Part shown: piece after piece, positions 21,433 to 64,000 of the stretch
Numbering within the stretch: the stretch's first letter is position 1
Layout of the letters: the number at the start of each line of letters is the position of its first letter
Origin: an uncultured Pseudomonadota bacterium
GTDB lineage: Bacteria > Myxococcota_A > Polyangia > Polyangiales > Sandaracinaceae
Length of the DNA stretch: 64,000 bases
Direction: 5' to 3'
Assembly: GCA_963832725.1 (NCBI GenBank)
Contig: CAWHVG010000001.1
Span: 1,389,928-1,453,927, forward strand
Program-made: the position numbers and the translations under genes
The notes under the pieces: model-generated
What the model was told of the DNA's origin: nothing
What the model saw: the letters and a program-made list of their open reading frames with translations, nothing else
The model's database searches: none

Positions 21433-22542
21433 ATGAGCACCCGATGCGAACGATGTGGCGAGCCCGCGAGCCCCCTCGAGGGCGCGAGCCACGTCTTCTG
21501 CGAGCGCTGCGCGTCCATCGCGTCGACCGGCGCCCGCGACTCGAGCGAGCTCCTCTTCACGGCGCCGCCGATGAACCGCGAGAGCCGTGAGGATCTGAGC
21601 GCGCTGGCCAGCCCGAGCGCGCCGACCGACGAGCCGCTCGACCTGAGCCCGCTCCTTTCCGTCGCCAAGCCGGCGATGGCACCGCCACCCCGGCGACGCG
21701 GCCACTTCGCCGGTGCGCTGGCGGTGGGGATCGCCGCCATGCTCGTCGCCGGCTCGGGCGCGCTCGCCTGGCACGCTGTGCGGCCGGTCCGCAGCGCCGT
21801 CGCCGTCCGGCAGGCCGGGGCCCTCGCCACCGCATCCGCTCCCGAGCGCGCCCGAGCTCATGCGCTGCACGCTCCCGCGCTCGGAACGTCCGCCCGCGAA
21901 CAGACGCCGACCGAGCCCCGCGAGAGCCTCGCACCTCCGCCCCCCAGCGCGCCGGCGACCCGCGCCGCTGCGACGTCCGCCGGCTCGATCTCCGCCGGCT
22001 CGATCTCCGCCGGCTCGACCTCCGCCGGCTCGACCTCCGCCGGCTCGATCTCCGCCGGCTCGACCTCCGCCGGCTCGACCTCCGCCGGCTCGACCTCCGC
22101 CGGCTCGATCTCCGCCGGCTCGACCTCCGCCGGCTCGACCTCCGCCGGCTCGACCTCCGCGACCCGCGCCGTCACAGCCCGCTCCCCCGCTCCGCGACGA
22201 GCCCGCGCCCAGACGGCGCGAGAGCCTCTCATCGCCGCGCTGGCGCCGATCACCACCGCGCAGACGCCGCGTCCCGCCCTCGATCCGCTGCCGGGCCGGA
22301 GCGCCGTCCGCGACGCGATGGATGCGGTCGCCGAACCGATCGCGCAGTGCGCCGAGGGCAGCCACGGCCTGGTCCACGCCCGCGTGACCTTCCTCGGGAG
22401 CGGCCGCGCCGTGCACGCCGAAGTAGTCGACGCCAGCTTCCCCCCTGCCGTCCGCTCGTGCATGGCCAGAGCGTTGCGAAGCGCGCATCTGCCCGCCTTC
22501 GGCCGCGACCGCTTCACCATCGCCTATCCCTATCGCCTCTGA
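21433..22542 (+). CDS. zinc-ribbon / single-TM protein with SAGS[IT] repeat linker and TonB-C/AgmX-like C-terminal domain
   Basis: GGAGG sits 5 nt before ATG 21433. CERCG...CERC ribbon, then TM FAGALAVGIAAMLVAGSGALAW, 12 SAGSx repeats, and a C-terminal ...HARVTFLGSGRAVHAEVVDASF...RFTIAYPYRL domain. Confidence 0.65.
   Translation: MSTRCERCGEPASPLEGASHVFCERCASIASTGARDSSELLFTAPPMNRESREDLSALASPSAPTDEPLDLSPLLSVAKPAMAPPPRRRGHFAGALAVGIAAMLVAGSGALAWHAVRPVRSAVAVRQAGALATASAPERARAHALHAPALGTSAREQTPTEPRESLAPPPPSAPATRAAATSAGSISAGSISAGSTSAGSTSAGSISAGSTSAGSTSAGSTSAGSISAGSTSAGSTSAGSTSATRAVTARSPAPRRARAQTAREPLIAALAPITTAQTPRPALDPLPGRSAVRDAMDAVAEPIAQCAEGSHGLVHARVTFLGSGRAVHAEVVDASFPPAVRSCMARALRSAHLPAFGRDRFTIAYPYRL
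21976..22155. repeat. 15-bp x12 perfect-register tandem repeat (tccgccggctcgaYc) encoding SAGSI/SAGST
   Basis: Read directly. The unit order by variant is I I T T I T T T I T T T. Confidence 0.9.
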
Positions 22543-23115
22543 GCGCGAGGCATCCTCGGCGTCCCGTCTCGAGAGACGTCCACAGAACGGATCCTCGGCC
22601 CAGCTCGAGCCACGTTGGCGCGGGCACACGAGACCAGAGAAGCGAACACGGTTCACTTTCAAAACATATCGACATGAGGACACGGAACAATCCACGACAC
22701 GACGAACCCACCATCCGTGAACCGCCGCCGAAATCGGCCACTCGAGGTCAGCTCGTCCCGTTCCAGACGGAGCGACGCGCCACCCGAGTCGAAACCGGCG
22801 ACGCGCCTCGGGGCCGCTGTGCTCAGGAGGGTGGGTCCGAGCGTCCCCGCGTCTTGCACTGTCCAGCCTGCCACGCGCGCCTCGCCGTGCGCGTCTTCCC
22901 GACTCGCGCTCGATTGCGGCGTTTGAACACCAACTCCCCCGGGCCCTCGCGCGGATGGCGGATGCCACCGAGCGTGTTCCGCGCCCGTCTCGCCTCGCTG
23001 GTACCACCGCCGCCACCCAACACGACTCTCCACTGGCGGCCCACTCGCGCGAACGCGGCCATGTGATCCCATGCGCTCGGCTTGGGGGTTGACGCCGGGC
23101 GCGGCTGGGGGCGCA

Positions 23116-24103
23116 ATGGATCTCGTGCCATCGCTCCGCACCCTCGCGCCCCTCCTCCTCGCCAGCCTCGCGCTCGGCGGCTGTTTCCTCGACCGCAGGC
23201 CTCGACTCGAGCCGGGCGACGCGGGCGGGTCGGACGCCGGCCCCCAGCTTTCCGGGAGCGATGGCGGAGCGCGCGACGCGAGCGGGCCCCCGCCGCCCCG
23301 TGACGCCGGGGCGACGGCGGACGCCACCACGCCGCGACCGGACGCCGGGCAGCACGTCGACGCCGGCCCCTGTGGCTCGGGGCCGGACAGCGACGGCGAC
23401 GGAGTGGTCGACGCCTGCGACGTGTGCCCAGGCGGTGACGACACGGCGGACGCCGACGGCGACGGCGTCCCCGACCACTGCGACATCTGCCCCGGCGGCG
23501 ACGACACGGCGGACGCCGACGGCGACGGCGTCCCCGACCACTGCGACATCTGCCCCGGCGGCGACGACACGGCAGACGCCGACAGCGACGGCGTCCCCGA
23601 CCACTGCGACATCTGCCCCGGCGGCGACGACACGGCAGACGCCGACAGCGACGGCGTCCCCGACCACTGCGACTCGTGGCCCTGCGGGACCCTCCCGACG
23701 GTGCCGGCGACCGTCTCGCAGGATCACATCGACGTCTCCAACGTGCTCCTCGGGGGAGGCGGCGGCGCGGGCAACACCGTCGTCGCAGCAGCCGGCTCGA
23801 GCCTGCGGCTCCGCTTCGACTGGGCCATCGACGACACGGGGTGCGCGGGCTGCGTCGACCAGATTCGAGATCGGCACCGCGCCCGGCGACCGCCTCTTCT
23901 GTTCCTATGACGGCAACCCGCCCGGCTCGGGCGCGAGCGGCTCGGAGGACCGCACCATCACGGTCCCCGACGCATCGGGCCCCGTCGAGCTCCGCTTCAA
24001 CCTCGGCCAGAACTACGGCTGCACCTACCGCGGCGCGAGCACCTGGTGGGACGCCCCACCCGATGCCGCCAGCACCTTCGGGGTGATCTGCGTCACCCCC
24101 TGA
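23116..24103 (+). CDS. lipoprotein with thrombospondin type-3-like Ca-binding repeats; frame broken at 23862-23866
   Basis: MDLVPSLRTLAPLLLASLALGGC lipobox. Four DxCPGGDDTADADxDGVPDHC repeats. The C-part continues in ORF 23261..24103 (EIGTAPGDRLFCSYDG...). Removing one T of GATTC gives CVDQIEIGTAPGD. Confidence 0.7.
23419..23670. repeat. 63-bp x4 near-identical tandem repeat (TSP3-like units)
   Basis: The gacatctgcccc unit recurs at 23482, 23545 and 23608. The first unit (gacgtgtgccca) starts at 23419. Confidence 0.85.
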
Positions 24104-25781: not shown

Positions 25782-28259
25782 ATGCCTGCCGCCACTCCCG
25801 CGCCGACGACCCTGTCCGCGTTCTTGCGCGAGCGGAAGCCCGAGATCCTGGAGAGCTGGGAACGGAGCGTCCGCACCATCGAGGTGGCGCGCGCCATGGC
25901 GAGGCCAATCCTCCTCGACCATGTGCCCCACGTGGTGGACCGGATCGCCGACCTCGCCGAGGCGCTCGCGCAAGGCCAGCCCCCGCCACCCCCGAGCGGC
26001 GCGGTGAAGGCACATGCCAACGCGCGGTTCGGGTTGGGGTTCGATCTCGTGGAGATCGTCAACGAGCTCGCGATCCTGCGGGACGAGATGGTTCGACTCT
26101 GGCTCGGCGAACGGTTGTCGCCCGAGCGCTGCGCCGAGATCCGTCCTCTCAACCAAGCGATCGACCGCGCGACCGCCGACTCCATCGAGCAATTCACCCG
26201 CGCCCACGACCGCACGCTCGCCTCGCTGGATCGCGTCTCGGCCGCAGCGCTGCAGACGCGCGATGTCGACACGCTCCTTCAACACATCCTCTCGGTGTTC
26301 GTGGAGGCCGCCGAGCCGGTCGACGCTGCCGTCATCCTCCTGCACGAGCGAGGCGCCCTGCGCGTGCTGGCCGCCAAGGGCTTGGACCACGTGGCCGATC
26401 GCCACCTCACCATCGCCGTCGGAGAGGGGCTCGCAGGGCGCGCCGCCGCAGAGGGACGGCCCATCGAGGCGTCCGGAGACGAGCTGCGCGCCATCATCCT
26501 TCCGGACCTGGTCGCGCCCGGGACCCGGGTCGCCTATGCCGTCCCCCTCACGGACGGCCGTGACGTCATCGGGGTCGCCGAGATGTCGTCACGGACGGCG
26601 CTCCGGTTCTCGGAACAGGAGAAACGGCTCCTGCACGCCTTGGCCGAGCGCGCCACCGCGGGGATGACGCAGCACATGCTGCGGGACCAGGCCGAGGAGG
26701 CGCGCCGACGCGCCGAGCTGGAGCAGGAGCGACTGCGGCAGGTCTTGGATGCGTTGCCCGTCGGCGTATGGATCGCGGACGAGTCCGGCCAGATCGTGAC
26801 CGGCAACCCCGCCAGCCGCGCGATATGGGGCGGCGCGCGATTCGTGCCTTGGGAGCGCTTCGAGCAATACGAAGGCCGATGGGCGGCGACCGGCAAGCGG
26901 ATCGCGGCGGACGAATGGGCACTGACGCGTGCGATTCGACGAGGCGAGACCTCGCTCGACGAGGAGGTCGAGATCCGCACCTTCGACGGGCGCACGCGAT
27001 TCATCCGCAACTCTGCCTTCCCGCTGCGCGCGCAGGGTCGGATCGTGGGCGCGATCGCCGTGAACGAAGACGTGACGGAGCGCCGCAGGCTCGAGCGCGA
27101 GGGCGAGCTGCTGCTCCGGCGCGTCGAGTTCGAGCGCTCGAGGCTCAGCCGCGTGATCGAGCACATCCCCGCCGGCGTCCTCATCGCCGACGCGAAGACC
27201 GGTCGCCTCAGCTCGTACAACGCCGAGGCCGAGCGGATATGGCGAGACCGCTTCGACACGAACAGGCCGGTCGAGATGCAGCGACGGGGGCGCTTGTTCC
27301 ATCCCGACGGCCGCCCCTACGAATCGGGCAGCAACCCGCTCGCCCGAGCGCTGCGCGCCGGCGAGGTCATCCATGGCGAGGAGCTGCAGATCGCGCGAGG
27401 CGACGGCACGAGGGGCACCGTCGTCGTCAACGCGATCCCGCTCCGCGACGAGGACGGCACGATCGTCGCTGCGCTCCTCGCGCTGATGGACATCAGCGAG
27501 CGCAAGGAATACGAGCGTGAGCTCGCGGCCGACGCCGAGTTCGGAGAACGGCTGCTCGGCGTGCTCGCGCACGACCTGCGCAATCCCCTGCAGGCGATCA
27601 TGCTGACCGCGCAGGCGTTCGTACACCGGACGGACATGCCCGACGCCCACCTGCGGGCGGTCACGCGCATCTTGTCGAGCGCGCATCGGATCGACCGCAT
27701 GATCGCCGACATCGCGGACTTCACCCGCGGGCGCTTGGGCGGCGGAATCCCCATCGTTCCGAAGCCGACGGAGCTCGGTGAAGTATGCCGGTTGGTGATC
27801 GACGAGCTCGAGGTCACTCACCCGGATCAACCGATCCAGCTCGACTGCGCACGCGACGCACGTGGGACGTGGGATCCGGACCGTTTGGCGCAGGTCATCT
27901 CGAACCTGACGGCGAACGCGCTGCATCACGGCGACCCGAAGCGCCCCGTGCGCATCACGCTCGATGGCGACAGCCACCTGCTCCGACTCGCGATCCACAA
28001 CGACGGAACCCCGATCCCACCGGACACCGTGGCGCACATCTTCGACCCCTTCCGCCGCGCGACCGAAGAGGCCGGTCGGGGGGCGAGCGGCTTGGGGCTG
28101 GGCCTCTACATCGTCCGCGAGATCGTGGACGCGCACGGCGGTGCGATCGACGTGCGCTCGTCGGCAGAAGAAGGAACGACGTTCACCGTGACCCTGCCCC
28201 GCACCGCGGCGCGATTGACGTGCGCTCGTCCGCAGAAGAAGGAACGACGTTCACCGTGA
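25782..28259 (+). CDS. sensor histidine kinase (RsbRD-N-like, GAF, 2x PAS, HisKA, HATPase_c)
   Basis: 825-aa ORF. H-box GVLAHDLRNPL, N-box NLTANALHHG, G-boxes DPFRRA..GLGLGLYIVREIV. Two PAS-like blocks each followed by a coiled E/R linker. The C-terminal tail is altered by a 68-bp duplication. Confidence 0.85.
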   Translation: MPAATPAPTTLSAFLRERKPEILESWERSVRTIEVARAMARPILLDHVPHVVDRIADLAEALAQGQPPPPPSGAVKAHANARFGLGFDLVEIVNELAILRDEMVRLWLGERLSPERCAEIRPLNQAIDRATADSIEQFTRAHDRTLASLDRVSAAALQTRDVDTLLQHILSVFVEAAEPVDAAVILLHERGALRVLAAKGLDHVADRHLTIAVGEGLAGRAAAEGRPIEASGDELRAIILPDLVAPGTRVAYAVPLTDGRDVIGVAEMSSRTALRFSEQEKRLLHALAERATAGMTQHMLRDQAEEARRRAELEQERLRQVLDALPVGVWIADESGQIVTGNPASRAIWGGARFVPWERFEQYEGRWAATGKRIAADEWALTRAIRRGETSLDEEVEIRTFDGRTRFIRNSAFPLRAQGRIVGAIAVNEDVTERRRLEREGELLLRRVEFERSRLSRVIEHIPAGVLIADAKTGRLSSYNAEAERIWRDRFDTNRPVEMQRRGRLFHPDGRPYESGSNPLARALRAGEVIHGEELQIARGDGTRGTVVVNAIPLRDEDGTIVAALLALMDISERKEYERELAADAEFGERLLGVLAHDLRNPLQAIMLTAQAFVHRTDMPDAHLRAVTRILSSAHRIDRMIADIADFTRGRLGGGIPIVPKPTELGEVCRLVIDELEVTHPDQPIQLDCARDARGTWDPDRLAQVISNLTANALHHGDPKRPVRITLDGDSHLLRLAIHNDGTPIPPDTVAHIFDPFRRATEEAGRGASGLGLGLYIVREIVDAHGGAIDVRSSAEEGTTFTVTLPRTAARLTCARPQKKERRSP

Positions 28260-28281
28260 CCCTGCCCCGCACCGCGAAACC
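28146..28281. repeat. 68-bp x2 tandem duplication spanning the kinase stop
   Basis: atcgacgtgcgctcgtcggcagaagaaggaacgacgttcaccgtgaccctgccccgcaccgcg is repeated from 28214 with 2 substitutions in the first 63 nt. The period is not a multiple of 3. Confidence 0.9.
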
Positions 28282-36833: not shown

Positions 36834-38918
36834 ATGACCGCTCAACTTCCCCTTCGCCTTCCTCTGCTCGCGACGCTGATCTCGGTCGCGACGGCGTGCG
36901 GCAACCCTCAAAACGCCTGCGTCGAAGACGATAGTGGCGGTTGCTTGGCCAGCGTTCGGCTGACCTACTTGAAGGTCGACTACGACCTGAGCCAGCCCGT
37001 CTTCGTGAACAACCGCGTCGCGGTCGAGTACGGCATCACCTCGACCAGCCCCGACCCGAGCGCGCCCGCGACCCGGAACGTCGCGGTCAGCTTCAGCTTC
37101 GTCGAGGCGAACCCGGCCAATCCCTCGGCGCCCATCGAGTGCGCGTCCAACGCGTTCGACCTCGAGCTGACGGGCGACGGGCAAGAGCAGGTGTTCAACG
37201 GCTTCGTCTGGCCGACCACCCTCTGCCAAGAGCTGGTCGGAAAGGCCGTGAACCTCCGGGTCAGCTTCGACGGCGGCGAAGGGGTGGCGGACACCGGCAT
37301 CGACTACCCGTCGGTGTCTTTCACGGAGGCCGCAGCGAGCGCCGACATCAACCAGGCCTGCCGCACGGCCACCAATCCGACGGCGACCGACCTCGGCCTC
37401 GGCTGCGTGTACGACTTCGACATCGAGCCCACGCCGACCGACGGGAGCGACACCCTGATCGACGTGCGCTACGGCGGCCTCACGCCGGCCTCGTCGGTGG
37501 CGATCCTGCCCTACGTCGACCCGAGCGCGACCGGCGCCGATCTCGCCCCGAGCCTCGTCGTGCAGTCCACGCTCGTCGTCGACGGACGTGACCCCTACAT
37601 CGCCGGATTGGCGCCCGAGGACGTGCCGGCGGGTCTCGAGGCCGAGGCGCCCGGTATCACCCAGGATCTCCAGTTCGGCGTCGATCCCTCGAACCTCGAC
37701 AGCATCACCGCGATGCCGGGACACGCCGCGCTGACCTACGAGATCGCGCCCGCGAACGACGAGATGGGCTGGCTGCCGCTGACCATCGGCGACCCGAGCT
37801 CGGAGGTCAGCGCCGATCACGTCAGCGAGTACGTGATCGATTCGCTCCAGCCCGGCACCCCGAACATGTTCGCCCACGAGCTCTTCGCCGAGGGCGACAC
37901 CCGCGCCGCGCTCGACGCGGGCGGCCAGTGGGCCGACGTCAGCGACTTCTCGGTGCGCGGCTGCTTCGCGGCCGACTTCACCCAGGCCGGCAACGAGGGT
38001 GAGGACACCAGCGACTGCCGCACCATCCCCGTCGTGCTGGTCCGAGAGGCGCCGAGCCCCTCCGCCGCCACCTCCATCACCTTCGACCAGGAGCTCGAAC
38101 GCCACGTCGGAAACCCGGGCCGCCTCGCGCTCGGCGCGGATCTGGTCACCGAGAACCGGCTCGATCAGGGCGGCGTCTTCAGCCGTGTCCAGGGCGACGT
38201 GACCATCCGCGGCCGGCTCGGGCACTCGTTCTCGATCACCGTGGCCCACGCCGAGGGGCGCGCCAGCCTCGACGTGAGCGCCGCGCAGGCCAGCTACGAG
38301 ATCGGCGTCGACGCGTTCGGGCACAACATCTACGGCGTCTCGGAGAGCAGTCCCACCCTCACCCACGAGGACGACTTCTCGGCGGCGAAGTCCTTCACCT
38401 TCGCCCGCCTCGGCTACGGGTTCGGGCCGATCCGCATCGGGTTCGAGTTCAAGCTCGGCGGCGAGGTCGGCTTCAGCACCGCGGACAGCCTCGAGCTCTC
38501 CACCGACGCCGCACACTGCGCCGCGCTGCTCCGCACCTCGGACGCGGTCGGCGCGTGCGGCTCGATCTCCCGGACGGCCACCCCCCACTTCGCGTTCACC
38601 GCGTCGGTCGAGGGCGGCATCCACCTGCGCCACATCAGGGCGGGCGTGCGGGCCGACCTGCACCTGGTCGACACCCAGTTCCCGTTGACCGCCTCGCTCA
38701 ACTGGGGCCTCGGCGCCGACGGAAGCCCGCGGGTGCTCGGCAGCGCCAACTGGCAGCTCTCGATGCAGCTCATCCGCGGAGACGTCTCGATCGTGGGCCG
38801 CATCGGGTTCCGTCGCTTCGCCCGCACGCTCCACGTCCACCTCTTCAGCTTCCACTCGCGCCGCTTCACCCGGACGCTCCTCGACCAGTCGATGGACGCC
38901 TTCGAGGTGCTCCAGTGA
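36834..38918 (+). CDS. large lipoprotein, unknown function (first gene of a 3-gene envelope operon)
   Basis: 694-aa ORF. LLATLISVATACG lipobox. The acidic N-terminal half is followed by a strand-rich C-terminal half. AAGGAG lies upstream of the ATG. Confidence 0.7.
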   Translation: MTAQLPLRLPLLATLISVATACGNPQNACVEDDSGGCLASVRLTYLKVDYDLSQPVFVNNRVAVEYGITSTSPDPSAPATRNVAVSFSFVEANPANPSAPIECASNAFDLELTGDGQEQVFNGFVWPTTLCQELVGKAVNLRVSFDGGEGVADTGIDYPSVSFTEAAASADINQACRTATNPTATDLGLGCVYDFDIEPTPTDGSDTLIDVRYGGLTPASSVAILPYVDPSATGADLAPSLVVQSTLVVDGRDPYIAGLAPEDVPAGLEAEAPGITQDLQFGVDPSNLDSITAMPGHAALTYEIAPANDEMGWLPLTIGDPSSEVSADHVSEYVIDSLQPGTPNMFAHELFAEGDTRAALDAGGQWADVSDFSVRGCFAADFTQAGNEGEDTSDCRTIPVVLVREAPSPSAATSITFDQELERHVGNPGRLALGADLVTENRLDQGGVFSRVQGDVTIRGRLGHSFSITVAHAEGRASLDVSAAQASYEIGVDAFGHNIYGVSESSPTLTHEDDFSAAKSFTFARLGYGFGPIRIGFEFKLGGEVGFSTADSLELSTDAAHCAALLRTSDAVGACGSISRTATPHFAFTASVEGGIHLRHIRAGVRADLHLVDTQFPLTASLNWGLGADGSPRVLGSANWQLSMQLIRGDVSIVGRIGFRRFARTLHVHLFSFHSRRFTRTLLDQSMDAFEVLQ

Positions 38919-40754
38919 GCGCGCTGCACAAAGCGGGCATCGGGGTCGGGATCGGGCTCGCGGCGCTGGCGCTGGTCGGTCTCGGCCGGGGCGACGAGGA
39001 TGCGCCGGAGCCCCGAGCCGTCGAGAACGCACCGGAGCTGCCCTTGCGCTGCGAGCTCACCCGAGGCGACACCGCCGCCTTCACGTTCGAGTCGCGGGCC
39101 GCGCTCGACGGAGAGGCGGAGCCGACCGAGGACCTCTTCGGCGGCGAGCTGAGCTGGGTCGTCGACGACGTGACCGGTGAGTCGGCGCTCCTGCGCGCCC
39201 AGCTCCGCTCGGTGAGGCTCGAGCAGACGCTCTCGCGCGAGCAGGCCAGCGCCGACGAGCTCGAGGGAAGCCCCTTCTACGTGCGGATTGACTCGCGCTG
39301 CCGCTTCACCGGACTCGGGTTCGCGCCGGGCTGGAGCGCGTCGAGCCGCCGCTTGGTCACCGCGCTGCTGGACGGGTTCGAGATCGTGCTCCCGAGCGAC
39401 GACGCGACGCGCTGGGAGGTCGAACAGCAGGACGGGGTGGGCGCCTTCGCGGCGCACTACCGCGTGCACGAGAGCGGGGGCGAACAGACGGTCGTGCGGT
39501 CCAAGCCCGGCTACCGACTGGACGAGGACACACAGCAGGCCGGGATCCGCGTTCAGCTCCTCGGCGCACGGGCCGAGGCGCGCTTCGACCCCGCGCGTCC
39601 CGGCTGGATGCGCAGCGTCGAGGGCCAGGAGCGCGTCCGCTTCCTCTTGCCCGGTGAGGAGCCGCAGGGCTTCCTGCACCGCTTCCACATCGCGCGAGAC
39701 GACGCGCGCTACCTCGCGGTCCGTGACGGGCTCTCGCTCGGCGACGCCGACTTCACCGACGCGCTGGCGCTCGAGGACGCCTCCCAGCCGGCGGTGGATC
39801 CGGCGATGGCCGCACTGGATCACGAGACCGTACGCTCGCGCTTCCTCGCCCTCTTCCAGGAGAGCGGGCGGAGCGCCGTGTACCCCGCCGCGCGTCTGCT
39901 CGCAGCGTGGCTGCAGGCGCACCCGGACGAGAGCGGGCTCCTTCTTTCGGACTTGCGCGAGGGCGCCATCGATCCCGAGGCACACTCGGCGCTCTTCCTG
40001 GCGCTGGAGCTCGCGGGCACCGACGCGTCGCGCGGTGTGCTGGCCGAGGCGCTGGTCGACCCCGCGCTGACCGAGGTGGATTCGGGCGCGGGCCGCGACC
40101 GCGTTGGCCGACCACGGCACACCCTCTCGAGAGGCGGCGGAGCTGCTCCTGGCGCAGGCGCGAGGCGACGAGTCGCCGATGGTCTCGAACGTGAGCTTGC
40201 TCGGCGTCGGGAGCATGGCTTCGCGCACGCGGCCGGGCGAGCCTCTGCACGAGGAGCTGCACCAGGCGCTGGCGGACGAGCTCTCGCACTCGACCGACGG
40301 CGCCGAGATCGCCGTGGTCGACGCCGTCGGCAACAGCGGTGACGACGCCTTCGGTCCCGCGCTCGAGGAGCGCCTCGCCGGCGAGCAGCCCACCCTGCGC
40401 GCGCACGCCGCGGAGGCGCTCGGCCACCTCTCGCCCGAGGTCGCGCGGCCTGCGTTGGTGGCGCGCCTGGAGGACGAGGAGAGCCCGCGGGTGAGCGCCG
40501 CGATCCTGCGCAGCCTGAGCCGCATGCAAGGGAGCGCGGAGCTCTCGGAGGCGGAGCGCGCGCTCGCGGCGAACAAGCTCGCGAGCTCGACCAGCACCGA
40601 GGAGCGCGCGGCCCTGATCGAGTGGTTGGGTCACGCGCGGGATCAGGCCGAGGCGCGCCGGATCCTGGCGGAGCACTTCCCGATCGAGTCGAACGTGCGC
40701 CTCCAGCAGCGCATCGGCGCCTTCGTCTCGGCCGAGGAGCTGCGGGGTCTCTGA
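38915..40754 (+). CDS. single-TM protein with beta-rich N-domain and HEAT-like repeats; frame broken at 40079-40083
   Basis: GTG 38915 overlaps the upstream TGA (GTGA). TM GIGVGIGLAALALVGL. The C-part is ORF 40104..40754, with repeats of type P.L...L.DE.P.VR.AA. Removing one T of GATTC gives LTEVDRARAATALADHG. Confidence 0.65.
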
Positions 40755-41851
40755 TGCGGCGCGCCCTCTCGACGTCGAGCCTCGCCCTGATGCTGGCCGC
40801 TTGCGGCACGGCGCCGGTGGATCCGCTCGGCGGCGGAGGGCGCGCGATCACCGCTGAGCCCGTCCCTTTCGACGCGGACGGGCTCACGCCACCCCTCTCC
40901 GTGCCCGCGTTCGACGGCGAGTCGGTGACGTTGTGGGCGCGGAGCGAGCCGGGCACCTGCTTCGCGCTCGCCTCGCTCGAGGACGCCGCGGGGCGTGCCT
41001 GGGTGAGCGCACGCGATGCGGGCCCCTACTGCAAGCGCTGCGACCTGCGGACCTCGGTCGCGGTCGACGAAGCGCTCTTCGTGCTGCCGGCCGGCGACGA
41101 CTTCGCGCCCGCCGGAGGGCTGACGGCGCGCTTCGGGCGGATGCGCTGCGACACGCTGACGCCCTTGCGGGAGGCGAGCCAGGCCGGGATCGAGCTCTCC
41201 TTCGCGCCGCGCGCCACGATCCCGGCGCGAGGAAGCGTGAGGCTGCGCTTCTTGGTCTCCGAACACTCGATGCTCTTCCAGCACGCCGACGTGCAGCGCG
41301 AGCTGATCGACCACCTGAACGACGAGCTGGCGGCGGCGGGCCTCGAGGCGAGCTTGGCCGCATCTTCGCCACTGCCGGACGTTCCCGCGGAGAGCGTCTT
41401 CTCGACCACGGATTTCACCGCGCTGACCGCCCTGCTCGAGCAGGCGCCGCCGCCGCACGACCAAACGGTCGACGTCGTCTTCGCGGGCTGCCTCCGCTAC
41501 GACGATCCCTTCTTCGGCCCGCCGACGTCGGTCGACGGCTACACCCCGCGCGTCGTGGGAGGCGGCGGCCCGGCGAGCGCCGTGTTCATGCCCGGCCTGC
41601 GCTGCGACGCGCCGTCGGATCAGCCCGCGAGCTGGCGGCTCGATGTCTACGCCCATCTGCTCGCGCACGAGCTGGGCCACTTCCTCGGCCTCTATCACAG
41701 CGTCGAGCGCGACGGCACGACCGACCAGCTGAGCGACACGAGCGAAGCCAACATCATGTACTACGACCCGAACCTCGCCTCCGCGAGCGGCTTCAGCGCG
41801 AGCCAAGCCCACCTCATGCGGAGCCACCCCTTCGTCCGCGAAGCGCCGTAG
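40754..41851 (+). CDS. metzincin-type zinc metalloprotease lipoprotein (M43/pappalysin-like)
   Basis: The ATG overlaps the upstream TGA (TGATG). LALMLAACG lipobox. HELGHFLGLYH matches HExxHxxGxxH, with a downstream Met-turn-like NIMYY. Confidence 0.75.
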   Translation: MRRALSTSSLALMLAACGTAPVDPLGGGGRAITAEPVPFDADGLTPPLSVPAFDGESVTLWARSEPGTCFALASLEDAAGRAWVSARDAGPYCKRCDLRTSVAVDEALFVLPAGDDFAPAGGLTARFGRMRCDTLTPLREASQAGIELSFAPRATIPARGSVRLRFLVSEHSMLFQHADVQRELIDHLNDELAAAGLEASLAASSPLPDVPAESVFSTTDFTALTALLEQAPPPHDQTVDVVFAGCLRYDDPFFGPPTSVDGYTPRVVGGGGPASAVFMPGLRCDAPSDQPASWRLDVYAHLLAHELGHFLGLYHSVERDGTTDQLSDTSEANIMYYDPNLASASGFSASQAHLMRSHPFVREAP

Positions 41852-42060: not shown

Positions 42061-42340
42061 ATGAATGCCGGGGACACGCTCGTGGGTCGGTTCGAGCTCC
42101 ATGAAACCGTCGGCCAGGGCGGCATGGGCCAGGTGTTCCGGGCCACGGACCTGACGACCGGGCGCACCGTGGCCGTGAAGCGCATGACCTCGACCGATGC
42201 CTCGCTCGCCCAGCGCTTCCTGCGCGAGGCGCGGCTGCTCTCGTCGCTCTCGCACCCCCCGCCTACGAGATGCTCACCGACGAGGACCGAACGAGCGCGC
42301 ACCGCGCGGCCGCGCAGTGGCTCTCGAAGCGCACGCTCCC
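42061..42340 (+). pseudogene. Ser/Thr protein kinase remnant (N-lobe only, joined out of frame to a distal fragment)
   Basis: LVGRFELHETVGQGGMGQVFRATDLTTGRTVAVKRM...FLREARLLSSLSHP stops being kinase-like after subdomain III. The next frame reads AYEMLTDEDRTSAHRAAAQWL, typical of the far C-terminal part of large kinase/ATPase proteins. No catalytic loop or DFG motif is present. Confidence 0.65.
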
Positions 42341-42384
42341 CGAAGCCCCACTGGGCGCCCGACAGGCGCCGAATTGGCCACCCC

Positions 42385-42735
42385 GAGACCCGCGATACGC
42401 GTTGCACGCGATGCAAAGCCATCCGGGAACACCCGGAATACGCTTTACATCCATTGCAAAGCCATCCGCGGGCCCTGTGATACGCGTTACATCCGGTGCA
42501 AAGCCATTCCGGAACACCCGAGATACGCTTTACATCCATTGCAAAGCCATCCGCGGGTCCCGCGATGCGCGTTACATCCGGTGCAAAGCCGTCCGAGAAC
42601 ACCCGGGATACGCTTTACATCCGTTGCAAGGCGCTCCCGGGGAACCCCGATACCGCTTTGCAACCGTTGCAAGGTGGTCCCCCGGAACCGTCGGAGGCCA
42701 ATACAGCCGCTGCAAGGCGCATCGCGGGTCGCCCC
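42385..42735. repeat. tandem array of about 8 units with alternating 43/42-bp period (85-bp dimer), lower GC than surroundings
   Basis: The ATACGC anchor recurs at 42395, 42438, 42480, 42523, 42565 (atgcgc), 42608 and 42650, with a degenerate copy at 42701. Unit core is GATACGCKTTACATCCRKTGCAAAGCCRTCCG. Confidence 0.85.
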
Positions 42736-43250
42736 AGCGCGCGACGAGCCGACGCGAACAATCCGTGAGAACGACGATGACCTCACCAGCGATCGATGGC
42801 TTCCAAACGAGGCTCGAGACGACCGTGGACCGTCGCCTCGAAGCGCTCCACCGCGACAGCTCCGTCCCCTCGCCCCCCTCGAGCAACGCGACCGGCGGCA
42901 GCTCCGACCGCTCGAGCGAAGCGAGCGAGTCGCGGCCGGCGTCAGCAGTCATGCCGTCTGCGCCGCAGGCACGGGCGGCGTGACCCGTACCAGCATGAAA
43001 CCCGTGACAGACCCCCACCACCGTAGGCGGGTCGTGGGGGCTCTCGCCCCCGACGCCTTGGGGTGCCTCAAACAAGCGCTGGGCGCCTGACGGTCCGCAG
43101 TTCGACCGTCAGGTGCACGGCGCTCGGGGCGGGGCCCTGCGAAGGAGGGGGCGAGCCACCGCGACCCGCCGGACAATCATCCGCGGCAGCCCCGGCCCTG
43201 CACTGCAGAGCAACCGAGCACAGCGACCGAGCACAGCAACCGAGCCGAGC

Positions 43251-44947
43251 TCACCGAGAAGGCGACGACGAAGCGCGCACGAAGACGACCGCGACCTCGT
43301 CCCGAAAGACCTCGCGCCAGCCAGGATCGCCCGACAAGCGCACCACGAGCGAACGCGCGCGAGCCGAATCAGCCGGCATCAGCACCGTGTCGACCTCGTA
43401 GCGCTCCGCGAGCTGCTCGAACATCGCCGCGCTCCCGTACGCCGCCGCGAAGCGCAGCAAGAAGCCCTCCGGGTAGAGCGTGATGGCGCGCCCGTCCACG
43501 AACACCGGCACACCCTCGTAGATCAAATAGCCGCCGAAGTTGAACGCGTTGTAGACGCGCGTCGTCGCGCCGGTAGCGCGCATCGCGCGGACGGCGGCGA
43601 CAGGGAAGCGCGTCTCGTCGAGCCCGAAGCCGGGCCGCAGGATCGGCCGCCCTCCCGCGCGCCACGCCACGACGGCGACCATCACCGCGAGCGCTGCCGC
43701 GGAGAGCGCGCGAGGGGACAGGCGCGACGCGAGCCTCGAAAGCGGCCGTACCGCGCTCGGGAGCCAGAGCGGCATCCCGGCGATCACGAAGAGCGACAGC
43801 CCGCGGTACGACATCGACAGCGCCGCCACCACACCGATCAGCACGAAGACCGCCTCGACCCGCTCGTACGCGCGGGCGCTCGAGCCCCGTTCCTCGCATC
43901 CATCCGCACCGACGCGTCCGCCGTCCCCGGCGACGCCGGACGCGTCGGTGCGCCGAACGTCGCCCGGGACGCTGGCGTCGTCGACGTCATCGGGACGCCC
44001 GTCATCGCGCGCACCGGCTCGAAGCTCGCTGTGGGGCCGCGCCGACGCGGCGGCCGCGGACTCGCGAGCCTCCGAGGAGCCCGGGAGCTCCCCGTTCGCG
44101 ACGGCGCCCGAGGAGACGGCGCCGGGCCGGAAGCACAGGACGGCGCCCACGACGGCGAGGAGCAGCAACGCGCTCACAATCCATCCGTCCGCGCTCGCGA
44201 CGAGCCCCGCGAGCGAGACCGGCGCCCACTCCGCGATCGCGCCCTGCATGAACCCGCCCGCGTGCGCGCCGATCAGCGCCGCCGCGTTCCGCCCGAACGC
44301 CGCGAACATCAGCACGATCAGCGCCGTCGGTGCCATCAGCCGCCGCGCCCGCCGGCGATCGCCGCGCACCATCCACGCGACGAGGAGCGCCGTCGCGACG
44401 ACGGGCACCAGCGCGTGCGTCGCGTGCGTCGGCAGCAGGAGCGCGTAGAGGGGCGGGACACATCCACACACGCCGGCTCCCCGGGTCGCGCCCCGACGTC
44501 GAGCAGCGCGTCGAGGGCGAACACGATCAGGAGCGAAGCCAGCAGGCTCGGGCGCGGCGCCAGCGCCGCCGTCTCGGCCACCAGCGCGAGGAGCGCGAGC
44601 GACGCCGCGATCTCCACACGCGCGCCTCGTCGCACCGCGCTGGCGACACCGGCGAGCGCCAAGGCGGCCGTCAGCACGACCTGCCAGGCGACGACGCCGG
44701 CCCAGCCCGCCGCGCCATGGGCGAGCGCCAGCGTGACCTGCGCCAGCGGCGAATGATCGCGCCAGGGGGCGCCGTGAAACGTGAACGAGAAGGGATCGCG
44801 CGACGGCACTGCGGCGTGCGCCAAGATCCAGCGCCCCGCCGCGACCTGCCAGGGCGTGTCGACGTCGCGGACGAGCGACGCGACGCACGCGCCGGCGGCC
44901 AGCGCCACCAGCGCGAGCCAGAGCCGCCGCCGGCCCGCCTCGCTCAT
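43251..44947 (-). CDS. polytopic membrane protein (possible lipid-linked glycosyltransferase-like); frame broken near 44465-44500
   Basis: The N-part is ORF 44336..44947 (MSEAGRRRLWLALVALAAGAC...). The C-part is ORF 43251..44888 from VPPLYALLLPTHATHALVPVV. More than 8 hydrophobic helices plus a soluble C-terminal domain. The shift is -1 here. Confidence 0.55.
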
Positions 44948-46603: not shown

Positions 46604-47650
46604 CTACTCTCCGGTTCTTCGCACGCGCCGCGCGCGGCTCACGTGCTTCTCGTTGTCGAGATCGTTTCCACGACCCGGGACCCGGGCCGCGAGGACTTGC
46701 CAATCGAGGTGTCCGTCCGGGCCGTCGCCACAGCGCGAGGCCGGAATCCGCGTCACCGTCGCTTCGACGAGGCCGGCGCGCGAGGCCATGTCGGCGAGCT
46801 CGCCTCCGCCGAAGCCGAGCCAGAGGTCGGCCTGCTGCTCGCGCAGCCGCTCGTCCTGATGGCTGGCGTAGTCGATGACAATCAGCGCGCCGCCCGGCCG
46901 CGCCAACGCCGCCAACGCGCTCAGCGCGGCCGCCGGTCTCGGCGCGTGGTGCACGACGCGCGAGGCGAAGACGGCGTCCGCCCCGCCGAGCTCGGCCACC
47001 CGCGCGCCGAGCGCCTCGTCGTCGAGCTCGCCCGCGAGCAGCTCCACGTTCCGATAGCCGCGCGCGCTCACCCGCCGGCGGGCCCGCTCGAGCTGCGGCG
47101 CCGCGCGGTCGATGCCGATCACCCGCTCGAAGATCGGCGCCAGCACGTCGAGGAGGCTCCCGTCGCCCGTCCCGGCGTCGACCGCCAGCCGGCGCGGCGT
47201 GATCAGCGGCGCCAGCGCGCTCAGGTAGGCGGGCAGCTCGCTCGGCAGCGAGAGCGAGCCCTCGGCCTCGCCGGGCCAATCGAAGAACTCGCGCGCCGGT
47301 GCCTCCCGCTGGGCCACAATCGCCGGCACCCGCGCCAGGCTGCCGTCCTCCTCCGAGAGGGCGCGGCCCGCGTCGAGCGCGTCGCCCACCACCGGATCGG
47401 ACGCCACTCCGTCGTTGAGCCGCAGAAACGCCCAGCGGCCATGCTTGCGGACCGCCAAGAGGCCCGCCTCGCGCAGCGCCTTCGCGTGCCGCGACACGCT
47501 CGGCTGCCCCTCGCCGAGGAGCTCCGCCAGCTCGCCAATCGCCAGCTCCTCGGCGCTGGCGAGCGCGAGGAGACGCAAGCGCACCGGCTCGCTCAAGAGC
47601 CGGTAGAGCTCCCACCGGCGAGCGCTCGGAGCATGGGCGACGGTCTCCAC
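46604..47650 (-). CDS. ArsR-family HTH fused to class I SAM-dependent methyltransferase
   Basis: The N-terminus [48 protein letters not shown] is an ArsR winged helix. The C-terminus [12 protein letters not shown] is SAM motif I. The stop is 2 nt before the ahcY start. Confidence 0.8.
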
Positions 47651-47671
47651 GCGGACCCATATATGCCTTCA

Positions 47672-47685
47672 TGCACATACGTGCA
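47672..47685. promoter_or_regulatory. inverted repeat TGCAC-N4-GTGCA in an AT-enriched patch upstream of the ArsR-methyltransferase gene (candidate operator)
   Basis: Sequence catatatgccttcaTGCACatacGTGCAagtg lies 22-35 nt upstream of the GTG start at 47650. ArsR/SmtB repressors bind dyads overlapping their own promoters. Confidence 0.4.
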
Positions 47686-47696
47686 AGTGACAAAAC

Positions 47697-47912
47697 GTGG
47701 CATCCTTCGAAGCGATGAGCGACGAGCCCCACGGCGAGGAACCCAGCGAGGACGAGCTGGAAGCGATGGGCGCGCGCAAGGCGTCGCCGAAGACGCTGGT
47801 GATGGTGGCGGTCGCGGGCGCCTTGGTCGCGGTCCTCTTCGCGCTCGCCTCGTACTACGCGTCGCAGCGAGATCGGGCACGCGAGAGCTCCGAGACGACC
47901 GAGCAGCGCTGA
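47697..47912 (+). CDS. small single-TM protein
   Basis: 71-aa ORF with an acidic N-terminus, then [21 protein letters not shown]. No homology recognised. Confidence 0.4.
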
Positions 47913-63761: not shown

Positions 63762-64000
63762 GGAGCTCCGTTCGACGGGGAAGATCGTACGACGACGGGG
63801 CGCGCGCAGCTCTCCCACTCGACGGGATGGGCCAGGGGCCGACGGCGCGCGTTCGGAGTTCCTCCCGGCGCTCGACGGCGAGATTGTACGACGACGGGGC
63901 GCGCAGCTCCTCCCCCACTCGACGGGATAGACCAGGAGCCGACGGCTCGCGCTCGGAGCTCCCTCCCCTGCGTTCGACGGAGGAGTCGGAGCAGGCGGCT
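63762..64000. repeat. intergenic tandem repeat, unit about 93-100 bp, at least 2.4 copies (runs off the window)
   Basis: ggagctccgttcgacgg..tcgtacgacgacggggcgcgcgcagctc..ccactcgacgggat.g.ccagg.gccgacgg recurs from 63855 and again from 63955. Confidence 0.8.

Follow-up and report, generated by a model that had tools for sequence, protein, structure and literature searches.

REP sequences and BIMEs of enterobacteria and pseudomonads are imperfect palindromes of ~35–45 nt that form clusters at gene 3' ends, in many cases where two genes converge; within BIMEs, the REPs alternate in orientation, exist in hundreds of dispersed copies and show two alternating subtypes together with two kinds of linker. 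Mycobacterial MIRU loci are an example of intergenic minisatellites (VNTRs) and form a family present at tens of loci and shared within the genus. Plasmid iterons are repeats of ~17–22 bp that adjoin both a rep gene and an AT-rich unwinding element. Finally, sopC of the F plasmid is built from 12 directly repeated 43-bp units, and SopB binds the 16-bp inverted repeat present in each of them (PMC3177203).

In a window of 64 kb, by which we mean the whole stretch of DNA analysed (64,000 nucleotides), from an uncultured Sandaracinaceae lineage, we characterized a tandem array that recalls each of these systems in part. With sopC it shares a 43-bp unit and a direct tandem layout without spacers, and each of its units has an inverted repeat, albeit an imperfect one. 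As in REP/BIME clusters, its imperfect palindromes are extragenic, lie in a convergent gap and fall into two alternating subtypes with two linkers. Like those of plasmid iterons, its repeats are direct and in helical phase. Its head-to-tail units of tens of bp in the non-coding DNA of a high-GC host correspond to bacterial minisatellites (VNTRs), as do its dimer structure and degenerate edge units, since slippage and unequal recombination are expected to yield both.

Structure and composition of the array

Anchoring on the invariant TGCAA motif resolved, in the assembled sequence, eight head-to-tail units of 42 or 43 bp each at 42,387–42,731 (Table 1). The distances between successive anchors are 43, 42, 43, 42, 43, 43 and 43 bp, which places the eight units in register. 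For the region 42,388–42,672/42,689, Tandem Repeats Finder (TRF) returned a period of 43 bp (6.7 copies, 74% matches) and a period of 85 bp (2.8 copies, 87% matches, score 368). Searching the 64-kb window with a profile HMM of the units recovered all eight of them (nhmmer, E from 2e-11 to 1e-5) and gave no further match there, and the 27-nt core GATACGCKTTACATCCRKTGCAAAGCC gave five matches in the window at up to 3 mismatches versus 0 expected in shuffles. The preliminary description of this locus, made from the sequence alone, had proposed about eight spacerless 42/43-bp repeats arranged head to tail with an 85-bp dimer; TRF, the TGCAA anchors and the unit profile bear this out, and the array with its 85-bp dimer structure is confirmed as real.

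The units exist in an A form (U1, U3 and U5) and a B form (U2, U4 and U6) that alternate across U1–U6, where the A+B dimer of 85 bp constitutes a higher-order repeat. U2 and U4 are 95% identical, whereas the A units are 79–81% identical to each other. The alternation and the decay toward the 3' end that had been described earlier both stand, the latter as a progressive decay in U6–U8, but decay is not a property of that end alone, as U1 at the other edge is divergent as well. Each unit comprises an AT-richer core of 27 bp and a GC-rich linker of 15–16 bp; consecutive units follow each other without a gap, and the linkers share homology. Between units of the same type, the core differs at 8% of positions versus 28% for the linker (Fisher p 0.0014, calculated on pairs that are not independent).

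Table 1 Coordinates of the array, its units and the neighbouring features (positions in the 64-kb window)
Feature	Position	Strand	Evidence and characteristics
Whole tandem array	42387..42731	.	TRF, anchor spacing, unit alignment, nhmmer unit profile, lag-85 self-comparison
L1, left outermost half-unit GACCCGCGATACGCGTTGCA, putative keeper of the ancestral left arm	42387..42406	+	18/20 complementary to R8
U1	42388-42430		
U2, B-type, whole-unit imperfect hairpin	42431-42472	-	-22.0 kcal/mol, z -3.69, 0/200 shuffles as good
U3	42473-42515		
U4, B-type, whole-unit imperfect hairpin	42516-42557	-	-22.0 kcal/mol, z -4.43; 95% identity to U2
U5	42558-42600		
U6, B-type, best-preserved palindrome among the regular units	42601-42643	.	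+ strand -22.4 kcal/mol, z -3.88; - strand -24.0 kcal/mol, z -3.88
U7	42644-42686		
Near-perfect 19-bp palindrome CTTTGCAAC-C-GTTGCAAGG within edge unit U7	42656..42674	.	TTGCA in U1 and U7, TTACA in the central units
U8	42687-42731		
R8, right outermost half-unit TGCAAGGCGCATCGCGGGTC, putative keeper of the ancestral right arm	42711..42730	+	Complementarity to L1
N-terminal relic of a Ser/Thr protein kinase gene, upstream of the array	42061..42258	+	Pfam PF00069, E 1.7e-8, profile positions 1-58 of 263 only
Orphan 68-codon ORF, 45 bp downstream of the array	42777..42983	+	GC3 0.85, no Pfam family

Could such regularity be a product of the assembly, that is, a spurious repeat expansion in long-read data? 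Two single-frame disruptions in neighbouring genes (see below) could represent long-read indel errors, and the source contig, of 1.49 Mb, may also be counted on this side. However, the divergence between the units is structured, which argues against a simple assembly artefact: ordered substitutions, visible as the A/B alternation, the graded decay of the edges and the complementary outer arms described below, are not produced by artefactual duplication. We consider an assembly origin extremely improbable.

The GC content is 0.57–0.59 within the array versus ~0.72 in its surroundings, which agrees with the earlier remark that it lies below the local norm. Over the three codon phases, GC in the array is flat (0.55–0.63); therefore, the long ORFs that cross it are not coding, as had been suspected, and the array is non-coding. 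Nor is it a CRISPR array, a point on which the preliminary description was also right: it has no spacers, and no cas genes are present among the ~40 ORFs scanned in the window.

Palindromes within the units and at the array edges

Each unit is a decayed whole-unit palindrome. A 21-bp imperfect palindrome occurs in all eight units, with matches at 6–8 of the 10 arm positions (at least 7 in U1–U7), a level of 7/10 being reached by 1% of centres across the window. At the edges, U1 and U7 have the palindromic pentamer TTGCA in place of the TTACA of the central units, and the unit profile matches its own reverse strand weakly. The hairpin noted earlier in the B-type unit is real and larger than first described, as the whole B unit folds (Table 1); folding of the A units U3 and U5 is no better than that of shuffles. 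Palindromy is weakest in the units that were amplified last.

The strongest complementarity is found between the two ends of the array. When each left half-unit was compared with the reverse complement of each right half-unit (an 8x8 matrix), the top value belonged to the pair L1/R8, whose members lie ~285 bp apart and are complementary at 18 of 20 positions, while arm pairs within units match at only 8–13 of 20. Among 400,000 random pairs of 20-mers taken 200–400 bp apart in the window, none reached 18/20. The same relation is also seen as a 39-nt inverted repeat (72%), and joining L1 to R8 through a short loop gives a computed fold of -31.5 to -34.1 kcal/mol.

Complementary termini are also what a MITE-like element would have, in this case a non-autonomous mobile element of ~345 bp, bounded by 20-bp terminal inverted repeats and with tandem repeats inside, that would have entered a decaying locus. 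Besides the 18/20 match of the terminal arms, a GC content below that of the host genome and a position in a lineage-specific segment (see below) are compatible with this idea. However, no target-site duplication is visible by eye at the array ends, neither the window nor any collection searched contains a second copy, and the window has no transposase. Moreover, the interior is built of the same arms, so that the apparent terminal repeat is what any tandem array of palindromes would show at its ends. A mobile element of this kind is thus very unlikely.

Another question is whether the hairpins belong to a structured-RNA array, as suggested in the preliminary description. Within units, the two arms do not co-evolve: the complementarity sum is 85 versus 89.1 +/- 3.0 after re-pairing, and 92% of permutations equal or exceed the observed sum. 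The consensus fold of the eight units (RNAalifold) has a covariation term of just -0.11 kcal/mol, with 1 of 12 pairs compensatory. The lack of co-evolution and the negligible covariation therefore indicate hairpins that are inherited rather than maintained. Rfam yielded no match to the array at the gathering score or at E<=1, and the structured-RNA suggestion finds no support in these results.

A REP/BIME-like hairpin array would also act at the RNA level. In such an array, transcripts entering the convergent gap would fold and so stop read-through or shield the upstream mRNA from 3' exonucleases. The array does lie between convergent units, with plus-strand genes ending at 41,851 and 42,258 and minus-strand genes ending at 43,251; the hairpins of its B units have energies of -22 to -24 kcal/mol (z -3.7 to -4.4), the reconstructed ancestral hairpin would reach ~-32 kcal/mol, and a second hairpin is present in the same gap at 43,075–43,124 (21-nt arms, 86% complementary, 8-nt loop, no T-tract). 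Since REP families are species-specific, absence from other species is not decisive against this reading. More difficult to reconcile with it are the A units U3 and U5, which do not fold beyond shuffles, the lack of arm co-evolution or covariation within units, the direct rather than alternating orientation, the lack of an Rfam family and of any T-tract terminator found, and, REPs being dispersed, the lack of other copies in 64 kb with ~45 intergenic gaps. On balance, we regard a REP/BIME-like function as unlikely.

Some folding results were set aside. The transcribed strand was not deduced from the stabler minus-strand hairpins because these come down to three G-U pairs in two near-identical units, too few independent events. 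Strongly negative z-scores for the fold of the whole array were not taken as a signal, as tandem units containing palindromes give the same result regardless of function. A window-wide list of compact inverted repeats, dominated by weak palindromes inside genes, was of no use in judging whether the seed was a terminator.

Genomic context and distribution of the repeat

The array occupies a gap between two convergent gene groups. The plus-strand group encodes a 700-aa protein, a HEAT protein and an M43 protease and ends at 41,851, followed by the relic of a Ser/Thr kinase gene; the minus-strand group contains the ArsR-methyltransferase gene, AhcY and a membrane-protein gene and ends at 43,251. 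The kinase relic, which the preliminary description had correctly placed beside the array, corresponds to the N-terminal part of the Pfam Pkinase profile only (Table 1), and its GC3 coding signal extends to ~42,300. The fragment that follows it (42,264–42,389) was considered as a piece of a STAND/TPR domain, a reading that was rejected, as BLASTP against the STAND protein of the window was not significant and Pfam gave nothing. On the other side of the array, the 68-codon ORF had just one marginal match (E 5e-4) among 1.84 billion representatives and is probably not a conserved gene; no conserved gene was found downstream of the array with Pfam and the same 1.84 billion representatives.

To what extent is this arrangement shared with relatives? 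The closest non-self AhcY homologues are 87–90% identical, and several of the closest named ones are labelled Sandaracinaceae, which places the window in that family (Polyangiales, Myxococcota). The array locus is absent from the relatives that carry these closest AhcY proteins. The ArsR-methyltransferase/AhcY pair is kept in L012–L016, and the cassette of the 700-aa, HEAT and M43 genes is kept in L017–L020, from Sandaracinus to Archangium. The modules are conserved, but the array-side flank beyond each of them is different in every relative examined; therefore, the 3.4 kb between 41,851 and 45,255 are lineage-specific. Neither the unit nor any comparable array was found in the nine relatives' loci (L012–L020).

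The three-gene cassette (36,834–41,851) encodes a ~700-aa protein without a Pfam match, a ~620-aa HEAT_2 protein and a ~370-aa M43 metallopeptidase, its genes overlapping at their stop and start codons; in L017 and L020, a gene for an FHA-sigma-54 activator is located nearby. The gene for an ArsR-type HTH fused to a SAM-dependent methyltransferase (46,604–47,912 in the window) is immediately upstream of AhcY in all relatives examined, and the pair is accompanied by a small divergent ORF of 57–71 codons. Together, the ArsR-methyltransferase and AhcY may represent a conserved methyl-cycle regulatory module in Sandaracinaceae.

Two of the neighbouring genes appear interrupted. In the HEAT-repeat gene (38,936–40,751, plus strand), the reading frame shifts by one base at 40,082: the L017, L018 and L020 homologues align up to residue ~391–401 in frame 2, which ends at 40,081, and the next residue lies in frame 3 at 40,083. 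The site shows no obvious homopolymer, leaving a pseudogene or an assembly indel as explanations. The membrane-protein gene (43,251–44,947, minus strand) is split into a 203-codon ORF (44,947–44,336) and a 361-codon ORF (44,336–43,251; P0001). In its sole homologues, P0002 (557 aa) and P0003 (658 aa), the N-terminus corresponds to frame -1 and the C-terminus to frame -3, and this switch therefore points to a single frameshifted gene or a recent split; the family comprises 3 matches among 5.8 billion proteins. Directly past the stop codon of this gene, a 13-bp repeat (GCACAGCAACCGA) is present in 3.2 copies at 43,205–43,245. The frameshifts in the HEAT and membrane-protein genes may reflect real decay or assembly indels, and the array-bearing segment looks disrupted.

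The window looks like ordinary chromosome, with genes for arginyl-tRNA synthetase, AhcY, a histidine kinase, a LysR regulator, a STAND/TPR protein, LMF1, lipoproteins and peptidases. Scanning of ~40 ORFs in the 64-kb window detected no ParA/CbiA, ParB/ParBc, Rep, Cas, integrase, transposase or phage domain, and the search for associated DNA-binding or partition genes, which the preliminary description had proposed, found no cognate gene among these ORFs. No tRNA is present in the window, and a scan detected no sigma-70-like promoter and no intrinsic terminator or T-tract. Judged by eye, the array units presumably lack the sigma-54 signature (-24 GG, GG-N10-GC) and presumably do not fit the DnaA-box, parS or ECF-type consensus.

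Searches for further copies were made at several scales. In the 64-kb window, with its ~45 intergenic gaps, neither the unit profile nor the ancestral arm at up to 4 mismatches revealed a second copy of the array, and no single operator-like copy was found elsewhere in the window. Scans of 185,579 species-representative genomes (a set without the source genome), of the JGI metagenomes and of IMG/VR, all of which needed an exact core of 17–20 specified bases and would miss diverged relatives, yielded only single, non-tandem matches attributable to chance in unrelated, mostly low-GC contexts. No similarity to the array was found by blastn in 72,556 plasmids and 50,697 phage records. The array is apparently a one-off, with uniqueness in the source genome covering the 64-kb window. 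The preliminary description had named an array that is unique, untranscribed and absent from all relatives as the outcome that would speak for a neutral local expansion; as regards uniqueness and absence from relatives, this is the outcome obtained within the 64-kb window, the nine loci and the exact-core scans of the collections.

These searches bear on a second functional reading, in which the array would act as double-stranded DNA and bind protein in the manner of sopC: one dimeric protein per unit, all on the same DNA face, would make the array a cluster of operators or enhancers, or else a landing pad resembling a centromere. The 42/43-bp period amounts to about four helical turns and corresponds to the sopC unit length (PMC3177203). 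Each unit contains the 21-bp imperfect palindrome described above, with a degree of matching rare among the centres of the window, and the 27-bp core is about three times less variable than the linker and AT-richer than the genome. Taken together, the positive support for a sopC-like array comes down to the 43-bp period and the less variable core. Against this stand the missing ParA/ParB, Rep or other cognate gene among the ~40 ORFs scanned in the 64 kb, the lack of similarity to any plasmid or phage record searched and the lack of a lone operator-like copy in the window; there is no conserved downstream gene to regulate, no sigma-70-like promoter was found, and inspection by eye showed no sigma-54 GG-N10-GC element. 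In addition, the ancestral palindrome would span the whole unit with arms of 20 bp, which is more typical of a hairpin than of an operator, and the newest units are the least palindromic. We find a sopC-like role distinctly doubtful, and the iteron-like or partition-site-like function offered in the preliminary description is not supported either, given the same lack of ParA/ParB, Rep or mobile-element genes in the window and of relatives in the plasmid and phage collections.

The window contains other tandem repeats. At 28,132–28,276, a stretch of 68 bp is duplicated in tandem (2.1 copies, 94% identity) at the extreme 3' end of a PAS/GAF histidine kinase gene (25,782–28,259), so that the last part of the HATPase domain is doubled together with the stop region. 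At 63,772–63,980, an apparently non-coding repeat of 100 bp x2.1 (84%), whose period, like that of the 68-bp duplication, is not a multiple of three, has a sub-period of 48 bp x3.3 and a sequence unrelated to the 43-bp array. The 68-bp and 100-bp duplications indicate, therefore, that local tandem duplication is recurrent in this region. Two further repeats are found within ORFs. A 15-bp repeat (CGACCTCCGCCGGCT; 12.7 copies, 96% identity) at 21,971–22,160, in the ORF 21,858–22,520 on the minus strand, which has no Pfam match, would correspond to a five-residue coding repeat, and a 63-bp repeat (4.6 copies, 93% identity) at 23,384–23,673, in a gene with thrombospondin type 3 repeats (23,071–23,910), is a 21-residue coding repeat.

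Origin of the array and comparison with known systems

How could such an array have arisen? Of the roles offered in the preliminary description, the satellite is the one favoured by the evidence, and the explanation that we prefer, with modest confidence, is an orphan, lineage-specific, palindrome-derived minisatellite, probably without a dedicated sequence-specific function. The outermost arms are the most complementary of all, TTGCA is kept in U1 and U7, and the arms within units do not co-evolve; these three observations argue, therefore, for the amplification of a palindromic seed whose palindromy was inherited by the units. The decayed neighbours, the recurrence of tandem duplication and the lack of cognate binding, partition, replication or mobile-element genes in the window also support the minisatellite reading, as do the uniqueness of the array within the searches described above, its position in a segment that differs in every relative examined and the lack of a conserved downstream gene.

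The order of events that we infer is as follows. The seed would have been a near-perfect palindrome of ~43 bp with arms of ~20 bp (GACCCGCGATGCGCCTTGCA / TGCAAGGCGCATCGCGGGTC), located in the gap between convergent transcription units. Slipped-strand mispairing or unequal recombination, favoured by the palindromes, would then have copied it head to tail. Divergence of one unit would have produced the A and B forms, and later rounds of amplification or homogenisation would have acted on the 85-bp A+B dimer. The interior units may subsequently have lost palindromy in concert; the array edges, which take little part in homogenisation, would have retained the ancestral arms.

Some observations do not sit easily with a neutral minisatellite. 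Strict neutrality does not predict a divergence of 8% in the core versus 28% in the linker, although indel-prone GC palindromes of the linker could inflate the gap. Divergence is also uneven between the two forms (95% identity for U2/U4 versus 79–81% for the A units), and a sequence of 55% GC that persists in a genome of 72% GC would have to be either recent or under constraint. That the core is about threefold less variable than the linker is the sole positive hint for a more ambitious interpretation, in which the array would be a chromosomal landing pad of sopC geometry (43-bp phasing, one palindromic 27-bp core per unit) for a DNA-binding protein encoded elsewhere in this Sandaracinaceae genome, or else the tandem form of a new lineage-specific REP-like family. 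We think that either is decidedly unlikely. If a protein did bind the conserved core, or if the unit were dispersed genome-wide, the array would represent a new myxobacterial binding platform or repeat family.

As a palindrome-derived minisatellite, the array is a small case study rather than a discovery. Its instructive feature is that its origin appears to be readable from its own sequence: the arms at the two edges would preserve those of the seeding palindrome and so reveal that the seed was palindromic. In this sense, it would illustrate the amplification of gene-end hairpin sequences into higher-order tandem repeats in a high-GC genome. A further use of the array could lie in strain typing, as a VNTR marker for the uncultured Sandaracinaceae lineage from which it comes.

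Comparison with the described systems places the array as follows. It has the tandem, spacer-free repeats of ~43 bp seen in sopC, but the adjacent parAB genes that define such a site, be it on a plasmid or in a chromosomal origin region, are missing: unlike sopC, it lies in a chromosomal housekeeping context without neighbouring sopA/sopB (parA/parB) and without plasmid similarity, its palindrome covers the whole unit instead of 16 bp, and its units are far more diverged. Unlike plasmid iterons, it has a 43-bp unit and neither a rep gene nor a plasmid context. Its extragenic units are imperfect palindromes in the range of about 20–45 nt expected of REP/BIME elements, and dyad symmetry at the unit junctions arises because the palindromes are in tandem; unlike REP/BIME elements, however, the units are direct and do not alternate in orientation, a single cluster rather than dispersed copies was seen in the 64-kb window, and no RAYT transposase is found nearby. 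Unlike the MIRU family, the unit of the array was detected at a single locus and in none of the other genomes searched, and it is a decayed whole-unit palindrome. The head-to-tail arrangement of units within the range of about 10–100 bp in non-coding DNA is that of a minisatellite, and the array is thus a lineage-specific tandem repeat that fits the definition of a bacterial minisatellite.
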